Part shown: piece by piece, positions 4,661-55,703 of the stretch
Layout of the letters: each line of letters begins with the position of its first letter
Position numbering within the stretch: position 1 is the stretch's first letter
Assembly: GCF_004010195.1 (NCBI RefSeq)
Contig: NC_057718.1
Span: 58,371,704-58,435,703 of the forward strand
DNA length: 64,000 nucleotides
Source: Chiloscyllium plagiosum
Taxonomy: Eukaryota
Direction of reading: 5' to 3'
Notes under the pieces: generated by a model
Databases searched by the model: none
What the model was told of the DNA's origin: nothing
What the model saw: only the letters and a program-made list of their open reading frames with translations
Translations under genes and position numbers: made by a program

Positions 4661-6361
4661 TATTACCCACTGAACTTGGATGACAGTTTTTTGTGATCCA
4701 TGGAGGACTCCCACATCCCCCCCATTCAATACCTGTCTATAGTATTTCTCTATTTAAATAATATTCAGCTTCTCTATTTGTCCTGCCAAAATGCATAACT
4801 TCACACTTGCCACATTATATTCCATCTGCCAAGTTTTTGTTCAATCACTTAACCTCTGATCTTATGATGTAGGAAGCGTCATTGATGCAACAGATGAAGA
4901 TAGTTGAGCTTTGTACACTACCCTGATCAACAGCTGCAGTGATATCCTGGGATTGCATCCGCACTCCTTCTGCTTTCTTGTGCAATCTCAATCTTAACCA
5001 CTCGCAGCCATGCCTTCTGCTACCTAAGGCCTAAGGATTTACCTTGCTAAACATTGTCACCTCAGTACTTCCGACATCCTTTTGATGTGCTCTGTAAACG
5101 TAACCCTTTGTCCAAATTTTTAGTCATCTTTCCAAATAACTCATTACATAGGCAGGATTGTTTCACCTTAAGAACTCACCATTCCTGACCCTGCCATGTT
5201 TCATCAGGAGGAGAGAGGCATGCTCGGGAAACAATTTTAGAGGGAGGGTAATTAAAGTCATTAGTGATCTCATTACAATCTTTCTGTGGACCAGTTTAGG
5301 ATTTTGGTAATGGTGCATGATTTGCATACTATCAACATCAGATATCCCCATAAATGGGAATTTGGCCAAGGAGGACACTCAGTCAGTAGTATACAGATGC
5401 CACCAGGTCTGCACAGGTTGCAGGGAGAGTGTCCTGTACACACTCAGCAATGCAGAAGGTTGTCCCCATCTTAACTTTGCAGTGGCTTAAGAGAAGCCAT
5501 CAAAGCGAATCAAGCTAAACACAAGAAAGACAACTTCATTAAAGGATAGTGCTCAGATTTAGAGACCAGTGATGATGAGGAGCAATTTCTTTTACAGGAC
5601 AGGCCGAGCCCTGGACATAAGAAACAAAGATGAGAGACGACATTTTTTCAGCTACTTGGAGACGTTGGAGAGTCATTGCATCAGTAGGTTAACTCTACCC
5701 AACAGATGGTCACAGAGATTCATGCCCTTGTGATGATAAGTCTCAGCCTGCAGCATCATGCCATTCCAATAGCTAGTACATTCTCTGAGGTCTTGAAATG
5801 CATTGCTTGTGGGGCCTAGCAAGAACCTTGATGTCACCTCCTAGGCAGGGGCGCACAGTTGTAGCTCACAGGTCACTGATTTTGAAAGCTGGCAGGATGT
5901 TTAACTTCAGCAAGTTGCAGCCTCACAGTAACAGAGGCCAGTAACTTTAGCTTCCTCTGTTGGATTCTCTCAGTGCAGAGTATTATTGATTGCATCTAAT
6001 GGTCATCAAGGCACCAAATGTCCATTCAGTTGGATTCATCAATGCTCAGCTAGTCTGTGAGCACAAGAGCTTCCAGCATACCTGTGCTCATATTCTCTGC
6101 ATCTACCTTGACCTTTAGCTTGCACCAGTCCAGACTGCTGCAATTTCTCATTTCACCCACCATCTATGACTATGACCCCAAATTCTGTGGATGGATTGTG
6201 GGGAAGAAGAGGTATCCTTTAAAGAGATGATGACTCAACCTTTTCTAAGATCCAGAGACCGAGGCATAGAACTGTTAGAACTGAAGCTATCTAATCAGAA
6301 AAACAACTATTTAAGCAGGCCACTGAGTATCTGAAGAGGCAATTGTCTATTGTGCCGTGTC

Positions 6362-7643
6362 CTGGATCAGTGGTGCTGGAAGAGCACAGCAATTCAGGCA
6401 GCATCCGAGGACAGGCAAAATCGACGTTTCGGGCAAAAGCCCTTCATCAGGAATAAAGGCAGAGAGCCTGAAGCGTGGAGAAATAAGCTAGAGGAGGGTG
6501 GGGGTGAGGAGAGAGTAGCATAGAGTACAATAGGTCAGTGGGAAAGGAGATGAACGTGATAGGTCAGGGAGGAGAGGGTGGAGTGGATAGGTGGAAAAGG
6601 AGCTGGGCAGGTCGGACAAGTCCGGACAGGTCAGGGGACCGAGTTTCTGGAGGTTAGAAGCTAGGATGAGGTGGGGGAACGGGAAATGAGGAAACTGTTN
6701 NNNNNNNNNNNNNNNNNNNNNNNNNNNNNNNNNNNNNNNNNNNNNNNNNNNNNNNNNNNNNNNNNNNNNNNNNNNNNNNNNNNNNNNNNNNNNNNNNNNN
6801 NNNNNNNNNNNNNNNNNNNNNNNNNNNNNNNNNNNNNNNNNNNNNNNNNNNNNNNNNNNNNNNNNNNNNNNNNNNNNNNNNNNNNNNNNNNNNNNNNNNN
6901 NNNNNNNNNNNNNNNNNNNNNNNNNNNNNNNNNNNNNNNNNNNNNNNNNNNNNNNNNNNNNNNNNNNNNNNNNNNNNNNNNNNNNNNNNNNNNNNNNNNN
7001 NNNNNNNNNNNNNNNNNNNNNNNNNNNNNNNNNNNNNNNNNNNNNNNNNNNNNNNNNNNNNNNNNNNNNNNNNNNNNNNNNNNNNNNNNNNNNNNNNNNN
7101 NNNNNNNNNNNNNNNNNNNNNNNNNNNNNNNNNNNNNNNNNNNNNNNNNNNNNNNNNNNNNNNNNNNNNNNNNNNNNNNNNNNNNNNNNNNNNNNNNNNN
7201 NNNNNNNNNNNNNNNNNNNNNNNNNNNNNNNNNNNNNNNNNNNNNNNNNNNNNNNNNNNNNNNNNNNNNNNNNNNNNNNNNNNNNNNNNNNNNNNNNNNN
7301 NNNNNNNNNNNNNNNNNNNNNNNNNNNNNNNNNNNNNNNNTCCGGACTTGTCCGACCTGCCCAGCTCCTTTTCCACCTATCCACTCCACCCTCTCCTCCC
7401 TGACCTATCACCTTCATCTCCTCCCCCACTCACCTGTTGTACTCTATGCTACTCTATCCCCACCCCCACCCTCCTCTAGCTTATCTCTCCACGCTTCAGG
7501 CTCTCTGCCTTCCTTCTTCAGGAAGGGCTCATGCCCGAAACGTCGATTTTGCCTGTCCTCGGATGCTGCCTGAACTGCTGTGCTCTTCCAGCACCACTGA
7601 TCCAGAATGTGGTTTCCAGCATCTGCAGTCATTGTTTTTACCT
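6362..7643. mobile_element. Penelope-like element with inverted arms flanking an assembly gap
   Basis: 6362-6698 and 7341-7643 are largely reverse complements. 16-bp direct repeat tattgtgccgtgtcct at 6348-6363 and 7644-7659. Arms are homologous to the GIY-YIG-bearing copy at 40624-41932. Confidence 0.9.
6423..6450 (-). ncRNA. Minimal hammerhead ribozyme motif (PLE-type), intact core
   Basis: CUGAUGA-A-GGGC(UUUU)GCCC-GAAAC-GUC; loopless palindromic helix III (ACGU). Confidence 0.75.
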
Positions 7644-7796
7644 TATTGTGCCGTGTCCTCTATCTAAGTTCAGAGGTCACTAAAAACAGATCTGTAATAT
7701 TTTAGTGATCTACCGTACTCTCCATAACATGACCCTCCAGTAAAGTGTGGAGCTTACATGCTTGTTTCTGAAAAGATTGACATGCACGTTCTGACA

Positions 7797-21302: not shown

Positions 21303-22085
21303 AGTTGTTACATAGATTAGTATTGCTCATTTAAAGCCTGAATTTTAATTATGTGGAACTCTGTTTTCTTTCCATGTGGTAGATGTTACACTTTCCTGTT
21401 GCCAGCTGCAAAAGAAAGGCTCCTAAACAAATTCCCCAACTCGATGTCAGAGTTGGAGACATACTTCTGATTCAATACGGTTAGCTGGAATAATTGAGAA
21501 ATTATGAAGATTAAAACTTATTCTGTCTCCTGGATAATATTGAATCTCCCTTCCCCAACTCCAACCCCAGTGGCTCACACTTTCCAGTACAACTGATAGC
21601 AGACCACTTCCATGGATACCCAACTTTTCTCAAACTCCTCCCTGGAAGTGATCTGACTTCCCCCTAATCTTGTCTGACTACTGATATCCAGCCAAGCTTG
21701 GACCAGACCTTGCCAGTCTGCACTGGACCCAAATCCAACTTCACCAACAAGGTCCAGATTATATTTGCTACCTTTCCCTCCTGCTCTGATCCCAACCTGT
21801 TCCTGACCCAAATCTCCATCCTCTGGGGCCTGACCCTAATTACACACCCCACCCCCACACACTCTGGGTGTGGCTGGACTCTCACCAGCTCCACTTCCTT
21901 ATGTGACTCCTCTCTGACCACATAAGCCAACCGTCCATCCAACCTGACTGGACCTCAACCTTCATATCTGCTCATCCATCCTGACCACAGTACCCAACTT
22001 GCTTACCCTGTCACATATGCCAACCTGCCGCCCCTTCAACCTACTCACCAACTCCAGACATCCTACCTTGGCACCATATACCTTG

Positions 22086-22425
22086 GAGGAGAAAGTGAGG
22101 ACTGCAGATGCTGGAGATCAGAGCTGAAAATGTGTTGCTGGAAAAGCGCAGCAGGTCAGGCAGCATCCAAGGAGCAGGTGAATCGACGTTTCGGGCATGA
22201 GCCCTTCTTCAGAGCTGGTGAGAGTCCAGCCACACCCAGAGTGTGTGGGGGTGGGGTGTGTAATTAGAGCCAGGCCCCAGAGGATGGAGATTTGGGTCAG
22301 GAACAGGTTGGGCTCATGCCTGAAACGTCGATTCTCCTGCTCCTTCGATGCTGCCTGACCTGCTGCGTTTTTCCAGCAACACATTTTCAGCTCTGATCTC
22401 CAGCATCTACAGTCCTCACTTTCTC
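22086..22425. mobile_element. PLE-derived palindromic mini-element with captured flank DNA
   Basis: Arms 22086-22212 and 22310-22425 are inverted. TSD caccatataccttg at 22072-22085 and 22426-22439. Confidence 0.9.
22185..22212 (-). ncRNA. Minimal hammerhead motif
   Basis: CUGAAGA-A-GGGC(UCAU)GCCC-GAAAC-GUC. Confidence 0.65.
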
Positions 22426-22599
22426 CACCATATACCTTGCCACCCTTACTTGACCCTTACTTGACTCTCAGTAATTTAGGAATACGCTGAAAAGCTGTTT
22501 CAGTGTAGCAAAGCTGCTCAGTGTGATAATGAATGAACACACCAACATACACCACTTAATGCTCTAAACAAAACAAGCTTTCCCCAACTGTCAGACACA

Positions 22600-38265: not shown

Positions 38266-38742
38266 AATGCCACCATCTCCTGTCTGCACATCACACTCAC
38301 TCTGTCTCTGACACTGCACCCAGGAGCCATGGAGTCCTGTGCTCCACCACCCACAATGTTGCATGCAACATCTTCCCTCACTTACTCTCAACCTCACCAG
38401 CGCTTCCCACATCCTCACACCACTAAGCCAACAGGCCCTCTGCATTGCCTACCAACTCATTCAGGTAACCACTATCACTTCCCCATTGATAGTGAAGTGC
38501 CTGACATTAGGTTCCTTATCCAGTTTGAGCAGAGGATCCTTACCCTGACCACCCTTATCACAGATCCATGTGCGCACCTTGACTAATGACAAGCTACCTG
38601 CCTTTGTGTCCAGACTAAACAACGAGGCACGAAAGAGGTACTGTGAGCCCGTTGGTACTGGCAATCATTGGTCCCTTGCAGATGAGGGTGACTCTATTCC
38701 ATTCTCAGGTTGGGTCCGTAGGTGGCTGTACAGACCAATATG

Positions 38743-38956
38743 CTGAGGAATGTGTTGCTGGAAAAGCGCAGCAGGTCAGGCAGCATCCAGGGAACAGGAG
38801 AATCGACGTTTCGGGCATAAGCCCTTCTTCAGGAATCTTCAGGCTTATGCCCGAAATGTTGATTCTCCTGTTCCCTGGATGCTGCCTGACCTGCTGCGCT
38901 TTTCCAGCAACACATTCTCAGCTCTGATCTCCAGCATCTGCAGACCTCACTTTCTC
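38743..38956. mobile_element. PLE-derived palindromic mini-element
   Basis: Inverted arms meet at ~38835. 17-bp TSD ctgtacagaccaatatg at 38726-38742 and 38957-38973. Hammerhead CUGAAGA-A-GGGC(UUAU)GCCC-GAAAC-GUC on minus at 38805-38832. Confidence 0.9.
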
Positions 38957-39502
38957 CTGTACAGACCAATATGGCTACTGCAGACTCTGTTACACTTGGG
39001 GCAGAAGGTGGTTGAGGAAAGGGATGGATGGAACATTTGGTGTGGCAGCGCACCCCTTCTGCTGTTTTCACCTGGCTTCCATTTTTATCCTGATGGCAAG
39101 TCTTGAGGTACTCGCCGTGATCCCAGATACTCCTCCTCCACATTGGTTGGTGTTGGGCCAATGATTCCCAAGTGTCTGTGGGAACGCTGCACATCACCAG
39201 TGAGGCATTGAGGGTATCATTGAAATGTTTCCTGTGTCCCCCTGTGGCTCGCCTGTCATTTCAAAGCTGGGAGTAAAACACCTGCTTCGAGAGTCTCATG
39301 TTGGTCGTGCAGATGACATGCCCAGCCCATCATAGCTGATGAAGGGTAGCCAGTACCTTCAATGCTAGGGATGTTGGCCTGGTTAAGAATGCTGGTATTG
39401 GTGCATCTTTCTTTCCAGCGGGTTCACAGTATCCTGCACCAGCAATTTTGTTGGTATTGTTCCAGCGCCTTGAGTTGTCTGTTGTAGACAGTGTGTCACT
39501 GC

Positions 39503-40059: not shown

Positions 40060-40623
40060 CTGGCCCGTTTCAGAGTCACAGAGGAGGGCGGAAACCACTG
40101 CAGCTCTGTAAACCATGATCTTGGTGTTGGACCTATTGTTGTTCTCAAACACCCTTTTTGCAATGTGCCGAATGTTGCACTAGCACACTGGACATGATGC
40201 TGGATCTCTTCATCAATAGCTGTTTTGGTCAACAGGACATTCCTGAGGTATTGGAAGTGGTCAATGTTCTCTAAGGCCTCCCCGTGGATCTTGATGATCC
40301 AGGGTTTGCTCCACAATGCCAGGCCAGATTTGTGGAGGACCTTTTGTCTTGCAGATGTTCTGCACTTAAGGCAAGGCAAAGCACAGATTTTCTGACCATT
40401 GAAATAGGCTCAAAGTGAGTGAGTACTAAAAGAGCAAGAGAACAGCACTGGGAGGCAGTCTAGTCTAGTGTGCAAGCTGAGAGCCTGTTCAAACACAGAC
40501 AGTATTCTTGCAGCAGCATTGCAATAATAGATGGTGGTATTCTCCAATTGCAGCATTTATGTGAAGAAACATACTGTGGGTAGAGCTGAGATGTGTCATC
40601 AGGATGTCATGAGGTTGGTATGT

Positions 40624-41932
40624 CGAAAAATGTGGCACTGAAAAGCACAGCAAGATCTGAGGAGCAGGAGAGCTGACGTTTTGAGCATAAGCCTTTCATC
40701 AGGAATGTGGATGGGGAAGGGGATGAGAGATAAATAAGGGGAGTGGGGATGGAGCTGTGGGTAAGATGGGTGGGAAGGCTTTAGATGGATGCAGATGGAT
40801 TGCAGGAGCAATTGTGATAGGTCAGAGGGGAGGGTGGAGCGGATAGGTGGGAAGGAAGATGGACAGGTCAGGCAGGTCAAGGGGTGCCAAATTGGAGAGT
40901 TGGATCTGCGATGAGGTGGGGAGGGGAGATTTGAAAACTAGTGAAGTTGATTGTTGATGCCATGTGATGCCGCTAATCTCGATACAGTGCATTATCCTCC
41001 ACCATTTCAGCTATCTACAGTCAAACCCCACCATCAAAGATATTTCCCTCCTCACCCCTATCTGCATTCTGCAGAGACTATTCCTGCCGTGACAAACTTG
41101 TTAGGTCCAACCTGCCCCCCCTTCCCCCTCTCCACCCCACCAACCCACCCTCCACACACAGCACCTTCTCTTGCTGCCACACAAAGTGTAAAACCTGCAC
41201 CCACACTTCCCCACCACCTCCGTCCAAGGCACCAAAGGATCTTTCCACATCCAGCAGAGACTTTCCTGCCCATCCACCCACCTCATCCACTGCATCCATT
41301 GCTCTCAATGTGGTCTCCTGTACATTGGGGAGATGTGACATCAACTCACGGAGGCATTTCAGGGAACATCTCTGGGATACACACACTAATCAACCTCACC
41401 GCCCTGTGGCTGACCACTTCAACTCCCCCTCCCCCCTCACTCCCCCAAGGGCATGCAAATCCTGGGCCTCCTCCACCATCAAATCAAAGCCACCTGCTAA
41501 CCGAGGAAGAACACCTCATCCTCTACTTCAGGACCCTACAACCATATGGCATTAACATCGACTTCACTAATTTCCAAATCTCCTCTCCCCCAATCTCATC
41601 CCAGATTCAACCCTCCAACTCGGCACTGTTCTGTTGACCTGTCCTACCTGTCCATTTTCCTTTCCATTTATGTGCTCTACATTCCTCACTGACCTATCAC
41701 AATTACCCCCTACCTGTATCCACCTATTACCTTCCCATCCACCTTCCCCCCCCCTCTCACCCCCAGTCCCATATTTATCACTCATCCCCTTTCCCCCTCC
41801 ACATTCCTAATGAATGGCTTAAGTCTGAAATGTTAACTCTCCTCCTCTTTGGATATTGCCTGACCTGCTGTGCTTTTCCAGTGCCACCCTTTTGACTCTG
41901 ACTCTCCAACATCTGCAGTCCTCGCTTTCTCC
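40624..41932 (+). mobile_element. Penelope-like element with GIY-YIG endonuclease relic and inverted 5' pseudo-LTR
   Basis: CIHCSQCGLLYIGE...HFREHLWD...PVADHFNS...EEEHLILYFRTLQPYGIN. 40624-40965 is an inverted copy of the 3' end. TSD tgaggttgg(t/c)atgt at 40610-40623 and 41933-41946. Confidence 0.92.
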
Positions 41933-41954
41933 TGAGGTTGGCATGTGTTAGATC

Positions 41955-46415: not shown

Positions 46416-48726
46416 CAGAGGACCTCGATTATCCGAATATCAATTATCCGAATATCAGTTATCCGAAGGAGATAAGACCATAAGACATAGGAGCGGAAGT
46501 AAGGCCATTCGGCTCATCTAGTCCACTCCGCCATTCAATCATGGCTGATGGGCATTTCAACTCCACTTACCCGCATTCTCCCCGTAGTCCTTAATTCCTT
46601 GTGACATCAAGAATTTATCAATTTCTGCCTTGAAGACATTTAGCGTCCCAGCCTCCACTGCACTCTGTGGCAATGAATTCCACAGGCCCACCACTCTCTG
46701 GCTGAAGAAATGTCTCCGCATTTCCGTTCTGAATTTANNNNNNNNNNNNNNNNNNNNNNNNNNNNNNNNNNNNNNNNNNNNNNNNNNNNNNNNNNNNNNN
46801 NNNNNNNNNNNNNNNNNNNNNNNNNNNNNNNNNNNNNNNNNNNNNNNNNNNNNNNNNNNNNNNNNNNNNNNNNNNNNNNNNNNNNNNNNNNNNNNNNNNN
46901 NNNNNNNNNNNNNNNNNNNNNNNNNNNNNNNNNNNNNNNNNNNNNNNNNNNNNNNNNNNNNNNNNNNNNNNNNNNNNNNNNNNNNNNNNNNNNNNNNNNN
47001 NNNNNNNNNNNNNNNNNNNNNNNNNNNNNNNNNNNNNNNNNNNNNNNNNNNNNNNNNNNNNNNNNNNNNTTTTTCCAAAGTGCAAGACCTTGCATTTGCT
47101 CACATTGAATTCCATCAGCCATTTCCTGGACCATTCTTCCAAACTGTCTAGATCCTTCTGTAGCCTCCCCACTTCCTCAGTACTACCTGCCTGTCCACCT
47201 AACTTTGTATCATCGGCAAACTTCGCTAGAATGCCCCCAGTCCCTTCATCCAGATCATTAATATATAATGTGAACAGCTGCGGCCCCAACACTGAACCCT
47301 GCGGGACACCGCTTGTCACCGGCTGCCATTTCGAAAAAGAACTCTCCCAACTCTCTGCCTTCTGTCAGATAGCCAACCCTCAATCCATCCCAGTAGCTCA
47401 CCTCGAACACCATGGACCCTCACCTTGCTCAGCAGCCTCCCGTGTGGCACCTTATCAAAGGCCTTTTGGAAGTTAGGTAGACCACATCCACTGGGTTTCC
47501 CCGGTCTAACCTACTTGTCACCTCTTCAAAGAACTCCAACAGGTTTGTCAGGCACAACCTCCCCTTACTAAATCCATGTTGACTTGTTCTAATCCGACCC
47601 TGCTCTTCCAAGAATTTAGAAACCTCATCCTTAATGATGGATTCTAGAATTTTACCAACAACCGAGGTTAGGCTAATTGGCCTATAATTTTCCATCTTTT
47701 GCCTTGATCCTTTCTTGAACAAGGGGGTTACAACAGCGATCTTCCAATCATCCGGGACTTTCCCTGACTCCAGTGACTTTTGAAAGATCTCAACCAACGC
47801 CTCCGCTACTTCCTCAGCTACCTCCCTCAGAACTCTAGGGTGTATCCCATCAGGGCCAGGAGATTTATCTATTTTAAGACCTTTTAGCTTTTCTAGCACT
47901 TTTTCTTTTGTAATGGCAACCATACTCAACTCAGCCCCCTGACTCCCTTTAATTGTTGGGAAATCTCGAGGTCCCAATAGAAACATTACATCAAAGATGT
48001 GTTTCCAACACTTATCGTGTATTTTGATTACAGTGATTAAAAGTGAACTTGGCTTACGGAAATGCTGCCGAGAACAGGCCTGAACATCGATGGGTGCCCA
48101 TGCACTGTCTCCAAATGACCTCCTGCCCGCGCGCTCTCCCCACACTTTCCCTGGCATTCTACACAGTTGTATACCCTACACTCCCCTTCCCCAGATAATC
48201 TCTCTAACATTGTCGTGTACAAGACAAAGGTGGAACCTGTCAAAACATTGCAGTAAAAGGTTGTGTGTGTGCGCGCGCACGCACGCGCATGTTTGTTGGT
48301 GTCCAGTCCGACTGTCACGGAGAAGGGATGGGGGCGGTGTTGGATGGGCTTGGGGGTCCGGGGGTAGGGTGGAAGGGGGCAATGTTGGATGGGTTTGGGG
48401 GGCAGATGGAGGGGTGGTGTTGAATGGGATTGAGGGCAAGCAGGGCTAGGGGTGGACAGGGGAGTGGTGTTGGACAGGGATGGGGAGCGGTGTTAGACGG
48501 GGTTGGGGTGCGAGAGTGGGGGCAGTGTTGGACAAAGGACGCATGGGGGTACGGGGCTGGGGCAGGGACAGGGTCTCGCGCACGGTGTGCTGCTGTCTAG
48601 TCTTTTGAAGGGGGAGCAGACTTCATAGAAAACCCAGAACCTCAGAGGAAATCAATTAACCAAATAATCAATTATCTGAATGAAATAGTGCCCACCCATC
48701 TCGTTTGGATTATCGAGGATCCTCTG
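46416..48726. mobile_element. Second copy of the TA-flanked MITE (opposite orientation), interrupted by CR1 at 46473-47962
   Basis: TIRs cagaggacctcgattatccgaa / tttggattatcgaggatcctctg with TA flanks; 47965-48250 is homologous to the reverse complement of ~30350-30630. Confidence 0.88.
46473..47962 (-). mobile_element. Relatively young 5'-truncated CR1 (RT to 3' UTR), contains assembly gap
   Basis: [43 protein letters not shown]; frameshift at YLTSK; cttatggtctt tail. Confidence 0.95.
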
Positions 48727-54255: not shown

Positions 54256-54598
54256 AAGGTAAAAACAATGACTGCAGATGCTGGAAACCAGATTCTGGAT
54301 CAGTGGTGCTGGAAGAGGACAGCAGTTCAGGCAGCATCCAACGAGCAGCGAAATCGACGCTTCGGGCAAAAGCCCTTCATCAGGAATAAAGGCAGTGAGC
54401 TTGAAGCGTGGAGAGATAAGCTAGGGGAGGGTGGGGGTGGGGAGAGAGTAGCACAGAGTACAGTGGGTGAGTGGAGGAGGAGATGAAGGTGATAGGTCAG
54501 GGAGGAGAGGGTGGAGTGGATAGGTGGAAAAGGAGCTAGGCAGGTCGGACAAGTCATGGGGACAGTGCTGAGCTGGAAGTTTGAAACTAGGATGAGGT
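54256..54598 (-). mobile_element. PLE 3' fragment (same subfamily as 6362-7643)
   Basis: Homologous to 6362-6672. Hammerhead at 54356-54383 has GAAA changed to GAAG. Confidence 0.9.
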
Positions 54599-55361
54599 GC
54601 AGCTGTAACATGAGCTCCCAACTCCTATACTCAATTCACTGACCAATAAAGGCACGCATACCAAACACTTTCTTCACTATCCTATCCATCTGCGACTCCA
54701 GTTTCAAGGAACTTTGAACCTGCATTCCAAGGTCTCTTTGTTCAGCAACACTCCCAAGGACCTTATCATGAAGTGGATAAGGCCTGCCCTGATTTGCCTT
54801 TCCAAAATGCAACCCCTCACATTTATGTAAATTAAATTCCACCTGCCACTCCTCAGCTCATCAGCCCATCTGATCAAGGTCCTGTCTTTAGTTACTCACT
54901 TAAAAGCTTCAATTGGCCATCCTCGGCTTTTCCTGCAGTGACAAAGTACTGCTGCTCCGGAAAGTTCCAAATCGTGTTAGATAGAACACGATAGTTTTTG
55001 TTTTATACTCCAGTATCATCTGATCAAGGTACCACTGTACTCTGAATTAATGTTCACTGACCACCACACCACCAATTTTCGTGTCATCTGCAAACTTACT
55101 AACTATACCTCCTATGTTCATATCCAAACCATTTATATAAACAATGAAAAGCAGTGGACCCAGCACCGATCCTTGTGGCACACTGCTGGTCACAGGCCTC
55201 CAGTCTGAAAAGCAACCCTCCGCTACCACTCTCTGTCTCCTATTTTCAAGCCAGTTCTGTATTCAGATGGCTAGTTCTGTATACAGATTCCATGTGATCT
55301 AACTTTTCTAACCAGTCTAGCATTCGGAGCCTTGTCGAACATCTCACTAAAGTCCATTTAG

Positions 55362-55512
55362 CTCACTAAGCGAAAGTGAGGACTGCAGATGCTGGAGATC
55401 AGAGTCTAGATTAGAGTGGTGCTGGAAAAGCACAGCAGGTCAGGCAGCATCCAAGGAGCAGGAAAACCAATGTTTCGGACAAAAACCCTTCATCCTGATG
55501 AACCCTTCATAC
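55362..55512 (-). mobile_element. Short PLE terminal fragment
   Basis: gaaagtgaggactgcagatgctggag...cttcatc; TSD tccatttag at 55353-55361 and 55513-55521. Confidence 0.85.
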
Positions 55513-55703
55513 TCCATTTAGATTACATCCACTGCTCTGCCTTCATCAATCCTCTTTGTTACTTCAAAAATCTCAATAACGTTAGTGAGACATGATTTCC
55601 CACGCACTAAGCTAGGCTGACTGTCCATAATCAGTCCTTGCCTTTTCAAATGCATGTAAATCCTGTTCCCTACGATCCCCTCCAACAACTTGCCCACCAC
55701 TAA

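Follow-up and report, generated by a model that had tools for sequence, protein, structure and literature searches.

Endonuclease-positive Penelope-like element (PLE) units, in the passages cited here (Arkhipova et al. 2013, PMC3846280; Craig et al. 2021, PMC8557442), carry head-to-head terminal repeats within a single TSD that surrounds the whole unit, an optional tail of 30–40 bp (PMC8557442) and, in some cases, host DNA between their pLTRs. In rotifers, PLEs have inverted pLTRs with a TSD and with host DNA between the pLTRs, and template jumps have been proposed for them (PMC3846280). The captured DNA in these passages is either a gene that was moved from elsewhere or DNA of unstated origin, and they describe no case in which flank of the insertion itself was copied in inverted orientation at the inversion point. 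Metazoan PLEs also contain minimal hammerheads, and the cited part of the work by Cervera and De la Pena (2014, PMC4209133) places pairs of them on opposite strands, 100–700 bp apart. For a PLE of the anole, in vitro experiments showed that the protein cuts and extends both target strands, that the tail lies between two RT start sites and that insertion is independent of hammerhead cleavage (PMC11167929).

Copies of nearby DNA at new junctions have been described for other systems. For L1, the cited part of a preprint (bioRxiv 10.1101/2024.08.27.596794) reports 22 templated insertions (3,598 insertions are given in the figure legend), mostly under 250 bp long and with a template that is typically within 15 bp of the site; three further flank copies appear in the cited part of PMC11702581. 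In these cases, near-site genomic DNA is copied into the new insertion, and an SDSA-like switch has been proposed. In the R2 snap-back described in the cited section of PMC11371274, the 3′ end of the cDNA primes on cDNA or on nearby target DNA before the junction is formed. The inverse-repeat class of polymerase theta products (PMC7165422) and MMBIR-type products (PMC8421209) contain, in the passages cited, inverted flank copies with a short first and a longer second microhomology, and the polymerase theta inserts are mostly 3–30 bp that originate from within 30 bp.

The unit at positions 22072–22439 of the window (the whole 64,000-nucleotide stretch of DNA that was analyzed) shares features with all of these systems. 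It has the inverted terminal copy, the TSD around the unit and the optional 30–40-bp tail that define PLE units. As in locally templated insertions, it copies unique nearby DNA that predates the insert, with microhomology at the junctions. Where this PLE palindrome inverts, there is a genuine inverted duplication that is recent and was templated locally. However, the template lies 181–281 bp from the insertion, in contrast to the distance given in the L1 source, and unlike in L1 twin priming as described there, the copy connects two arms, each of which starts at the element's 3′ end. The R2 source concerns engineered insertions in human rDNA with one cDNA, whereas the present case is a germline PLE insertion with two arms. 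In contrast to the polymerase theta products of the cited passages, the tract is 101 bp long and was taken from ∼320 nt back along the strand. A search of the full-text literature, with thin coverage of subscription titles that include older PLE work, found no description of a locally templated center in a PLE palindrome, and the available parts of bioRxiv 10.64898/2026.07.22.740005 and PMC13580325 contained no relevant passage.

Architecture of the unit and of its family

The unit is composed of two head-to-head arms that are separated by a spacer, all enclosed by a TSD (Table 1). The arms differ at 5 of 116 positions. In a search within the window, the spacer matched the reverse complement of the donor at 99 of 101 positions (E 1.7e-46), and the runner-up match was only 19 nt long (E 0.056). 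The two mismatches, at 22268 and 22270, are two bases apart and may represent one mutational event or a synthesis error. The left arm and the spacer have base 22212 in common, and the right arm and the spacer share GGG. The microhomology at the left junction is thus one G, which is no better than chance, and at the right junction it is GGG, extending to 6/7. Among 1,964 positions (up to 500 bp away, on either side and either strand), the right junction is the only one with at least three terminal matches plus 6/7 matches to the end of the right arm, by a criterion that was set post hoc. These results are in agreement with the sequence-only reading, which had described a 101-bp reverse complement with two mismatches, a perfect 14-bp TSD, a donor about 180–280 bp upstream of the insertion (measured from the left TSD copy, it is 181–281 bp) and microhomology of g on the left and ggg on the right. 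The focal unit itself contains no ORF. At position 22346, the letter of the right arm differs from that of the left arm, and the common letter accounts for ∼57% of the family depth at this position in run X15; the two arms may derive from different RNAs.

Table 1. Positions in the window of the parts of the focal unit, its donor and an older relative
Feature	Positions	Strand	Description
Donor	21791–21891	+	Single-copy flank; the 6/7 pairing at the right junction reaches to 21787
Left TSD copy	22072–22085	+	14/14 identical to the right copy; organisms B and C have one copy, at their empty site
Left arm	22086–22212	-	Antisense PLE terminal segment, reaching from the family's distal end to the initial C of the CUGAAGA box
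Spacer	22212–22312	-	Inverted 101-bp copy of the donor
Right arm	22310–22425	+	Sense PLE terminal segment, from the first stem II base to the distal end
Right TSD copy	22426–22439	+	14/14 identical to the left copy
Older sister insertion	40610–41946	+	Palindromic; 13/14 TSD; 78.7% identical to the focal arm over 122 nt

The family contains a predicted minimal hammerhead of PLEs, with core boxes, stem II and a palindromic stem III that are visible in the alignment of the arms. Stem II forms in all four folds (4/4), with folding z-scores near zero, and Rfam returned 0 matches at the gathering score. The predicted structure resembles those in the cited part of PMC4209133 in its core boxes, the extra base before stem II, the G-C closing pair (in the left arm here) and the palindromic minimal stem III, but both focal copies are cut: the left arm ends at C3, the initial base of CUGAAGA, with the 5′ strand of stem I missing, and the right arm begins at stem II and lacks the CUGAAGA box. 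The junctions had earlier been placed at the CUGAAGA box and stem II of a hammerhead; these positions hold, to the first C and the first stem II base, but neither arm has a complete hammerhead. Junctions at the cut site of the ribozyme were ruled out, as the two junctions are 27 and 20 nt upstream of where the cut is predicted, which implies that both arms were copied past it. This agrees with the cleavage-independent insertion of the anole PLE.

Within the window, ten matches to the arm were found at E ≤ 4e-5, spread over six insertions. The family was classified through the sister copy at 40610–41946, the body of which contains a frameshifted remnant of an endonuclease region that is kin to proteins that combine an RT with a GIY-YIG domain at the C-terminus. 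A full HMMER search with this remnant gave 24 relatives at E ≤ 0.001. Ten of them were scanned: eight match GIY-YIG at E ≤ 0.01, three of these matches reaching the Pfam cut-off, and in two, one of which is an 816-aa protein, RVT_1 is found upstream of GIY-YIG, below the cut-off. On the strength of these relatives, the arm family is classed, by sequence kinship, as an endonuclease-positive PLE. The remnant and its frames had no match in Pfam, a word-indexed protein search found nothing, a search of the Atlas gave only scores under 0.8, and no RT of the arm family was recovered from the window. Copies of the family with their flanks were found at 0 loci in the metagenome, viral and genome contigs that were scanned.

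Seven of the ten arms in the window start at most 5 nt from the distal end and three start 35–38 nt inside it, with arm edges set by eye from the duplications. By analogy, these two classes of arm start fit the optional PLE tail and the two RT start sites of the anole element. The right arm measures 116 nt from stem II to its end, and the RT start in the anole lies 111–118 nt past the start of stem II (PMC11167929), which is a likeness across families and not a test. Among the joints listed, some in other copies of the family coincide with these breakpoints or adjoin them and contain 0–14 other letters, at coordinates that are partly forced by the reference used. Four of the insertions in the window are palindromic. 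The center of one is in an N gap, and a long flank copy is present in one of the three that can be scored; the other two contain 7–8-nt direct repeats at the center. Such short fillers in sister copies were scored with no shuffled control and are weak singly.

The individual copies vary in structure. The insertion at 38726–38973 is a young palindrome of the same subfamily with a 17/17 TSD, one arm without a tail and, at its center, an 8-nt direct repeat of its own arm, and the copy at 40610–41946 has a 7-nt repeat at the inversion point. A one-armed, non-palindromic PLE copy at 55353–55521 has a 9-bp duplication; its tail junction contains an 8-nt copy of flank that lies 19 bp upstream, and its head junction a 10-nt repeat together with a fold-back. 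Another one-armed copy, at 54257–54599, lies within another repeat, and no duplication was found for it (the best candidate is 4 bp). The PLE palindrome at 6348–7659 has a 16-bp duplication and 265-nt arms that flank a gap of 641 N; beside the hammerhead of its right arm are a short fold-back (7508–7526) and a loop II unlike that of the left arm, which may reflect a template switch or a mis-assembly. An ORF at 47432–48175 on the minus strand matches RVT_1 below the cut-off (E 3.2e-06) and is probably a LINE remnant. Pfam searches of 35 of the 134 ORFs in the window, in which short exons would escape detection, found this remnant, two weak matches and no host gene.

The empty site and the age of the copy

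Contigs from four of the 24 listed runs were compared with the window: X1 and X15 (organism A, two studies), X5 (organism B) and X8 (organism C). The orthologous empty site was found in B (X5, record 17) and C (X8, record 24). In each, a single contig runs from 21450 to 22085 and continues, 12 letters on, at 22460 or 22456; between these points, the window has 374 or 370 letters and B and C have 12. Both organisms thus have an empty site with one copy of the 14-mer and a donor that is single and unbroken. Their flank sequence diverges from that of the window at 59 of 1,747 letters (3.4%). The presence of the unbroken donor next to an empty site indicates that the flank is the source of the copy. 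This supports the earlier view of the spacer as local DNA and not as family sequence, as does the absence of another copy in the window. The depth of the donor bins (21786–21869) is 4.9–21.6, similar to the flanks, compared with millions on the arms, in all four runs (4/4). The short tandem repeat that adjoins the right TSD copy (22440–22459) varies in length: it is 4 letters shorter in organism A, and B and C have 12 letters where the window has 20 or 16.

Organism A differs from the window by at least five substitutions and an indel that are common to X1 and X15, and it is therefore not the source of the window's own sequence. It carries the insertion, as record 2 of X1 enters the left arm by 22 letters and records 8 and 16 of X1 enter the right arm by 26 letters; both lengths are below the 31 letters of the rule applied to bridges. 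The contigs of X1 and X15 end at 21891 and restart at 21862, with an overlap of 30 letters. This break marks a fork in the assembly graph at the exact base that is predicted for the left junction of the spacer, and the contigs of B and C have no break at 21891/21862. A variant at 21892 that is common to X1 and X15 could also have caused the break at 21891. A second fork would be expected near 21791–21820; none was seen in the listed pieces of X1 or X15, and it may have been lost through graph cleaning. Two further observations were set aside. The depth of the spacer-only bin (0, 3.57, 0 and 1.75) was dropped as evidence, as the value of 1.75 comes from organism C, which has the empty site. Loose ends that piled up at 22212 and 22310 were dropped as a hot spot, as the reference ends there.

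The spacer and the donor have diverged by 2.0% (2/101; 95% interval 0.2–7.0), and the two arms by 4.3% (5/116; 95% interval 1.4–9.8). Both values are consistent with a date later than the split from B and C. The two do not differ significantly (Fisher p = 0.45), with little power for dating; they are compatible with one date, and one event and two events are inseparable by them. The comparison with the empty site places the copy and the insertion on the same branch.

How the two arms may have been joined

The account that we favor, and consider fairly probable, is a single integration event in which both nicks primed cDNA, one 3′ end snapped back onto the exposed flank and copied 101 nt, and the new end annealed to the other cDNA by microhomology. 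As suggested by the duplication, the PLE endonuclease would cut the two target strands 14 nt apart. Each 3′ end would then serve as primer for a separate cDNA, begun at the family's distal start site, and the outcome would be two single-stranded tails that halt at the front edge of the hammerhead. Tails of the same sequence would be unable to pair with each other, so something would have to join them. The tail of the top strand would fold back ∼320 nt onto its own upstream strand, exposed by resection or displacement, and, primed on one base, copy the stretch of flank that is now found inverted in the spacer. The new end would pair with the tail of the bottom strand through GGG (6/7), and fill-in and ligation would seal the unit. 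In an alternative order, which is possible, the right arm primes on the bottom strand of the donor or on a transcript.

The candidate polymerases are the PLE reverse transcriptase and a host repair polymerase. A tract of 101 bp from 181–281 bp away falls outside the size and distance of polymerase theta products (mostly 3–30 bp, within about 30 bp), and its template is more distant than is typical of L1; both points count against the favored account, as does the lack, among the listed contig pieces of X1 and X15, of a second fork. Because the tract is far longer, and its template more distant, than in typical theta products, synthesis by the PLE reverse transcriptase or by a processive host polymerase is no less likely than synthesis by polymerase theta.

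Although it rests on one event (n = 1), this mechanism is supported by several observations: the TSD is intact around the whole unit, B and C have an empty site with a single donor, the contigs of organism A fork at 21891/21862, and repeats of 7–10 nt occur at the junctions of sister copies, including a one-armed copy. The start of the arms at two discrete places fits separate priming of each arm. In the cited passages of PMC7165422, templated insertions include inverted copies beside direct ones, and the first microhomology tends to be the shorter of the two (16% of first microhomologies exceed 1 bp, versus 57% of second ones). By analogy, this shorter-then-longer pattern fits priming at the left junction, with its one base, and sealing at the right.

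The sequence-only reading had proposed that, during integration, nascent DNA switched from the PLE template to local DNA and back. Local templating stands, given that the donor is single-copy and ancestral, and the copy was likely made during integration, with the proviso that a later break at the center of the palindrome leaves the same scar. The return to the PLE template is probably wrong: since the arms start at two discrete places of the family, the second junction is more likely an annealing to a second cDNA.

Such a later break is the basis of a two-step alternative, which we regard as unlikely. A spacer-less palindrome would insert, its center would later break as a hairpin or cruciform, and host repair would mend the break with a copy of the flank in inverted orientation. 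Once resection had taken place, this route would pass through formally the same intermediate as the single event. Near-perfect palindromes are fragile. In addition, other family copies show direct joins at nearly the same breakpoints (among the joints listed), and the divergence between spacer and donor is nominally below that between the arms. However, this difference is insignificant, and the two-step alternative needs two events within one short branch, which follows the split from B and C and, if the fork represents the spacer, precedes the split from A. Short repeated fillers are also present at the junctions of a one-armed sister copy, and in the cited passages L1 and R2 make their flank copies during integration.

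It is more doubtful still, and in our view improbable, that one strand made the whole unit by serial jumps, the alternative nearest to the sequence-only reading, with a single cDNA that departed from the PLE RNA at the hammerhead, took local DNA or a local transcript as its next template, jumped at stem II to its own cDNA or to the PLE template, made the second arm and joined the far target end. Self-priming and template jumps have been proposed for inverted PLE junctions (in the cited part of PMC3846280), the ends of R2 cDNA snap back on cDNA and, less frequently, on nearby target DNA (in the cited part of PMC11371274), and a processive RT would account for a tract of 101 nt. An arm made by copy-back, however, has no reason to end at the discrete starts of the family, yet the arms do so. 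The arms also differ at five sites, and at 22346, where ∼43% of the family depth in X15 is without the common letter, the letter of the right arm may be a family variant from a second RNA. The ORFs scanned revealed no host gene that could supply a transcript, within the limits of that search for short exons.

An assembly artefact, in which the assembler filled the center of the palindrome with nearby sequence, is very improbable. The window contains two N gaps (641 and 332 bases), one of them within another PLE palindrome, no contig piece among those listed for the four runs crosses either spacer junction, and the spacer-only bin is uninformative. Against this, the spacer has two private differences from the donor, its junctions show microhomology, and both runs of organism A, from separate studies, fork at the exact predicted base whereas B and C are unforked. 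Finally, although host DNA between PLE terminal repeats is known (in the cited part of PMC3846280), the probability is negligible that a PLE subfamily carries the spacer as cargo, with the donor as a further copy of a repeat, and this reading was rejected on the depth at the donor versus the arms, with no further copy in the window and a donor that is continuous with unique flank in B and C.

Implications for PLE integration

The formation and sealing of inverted PLE ends are described as unresolved in the cited parts of PMC8557442 and PMC11167929. The presence of copied flank where the unit inverts shows that there was a free 3′ end at this point, with access to chromosomal sequence ∼300 nt away. 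The initial description of the unit as a direct footprint of how PLE inverted termini are joined was overstated, as it is one event, and one of the three scorable palindromes in the window has a long flank copy. Taken alone, the locus is one scar of a type that is known from L1 and R2, and it provides a lead, not a mechanism. Its use is that the sealing of inverted PLE ends becomes a matter that can be tested by counting in genomes, which one event does not settle: two-primer and copy-back models can be told apart by the orientation of the copy, its side and its microhomologies, features that are countable across a genome. If such copies are common, they would constitute a route to small inverted duplications.

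A broader generalization is tentative, and we place it on the doubtful side. PLE palindromes might arise because both nicks prime cDNA, and with same-sense tails that are unable to pair, integration would routinely pass through a long-lived break that is bridged by templated synthesis, possibly by the telomerase-related PLE RT; a measurable share of palindromes would then contain local copies on the 100-bp scale. If this is true, the centers of PLE palindromes would provide an extensive natural data set on how PLE integration is completed, a step that is still unsolved, and the elements would be a steady source of small inverted duplications.
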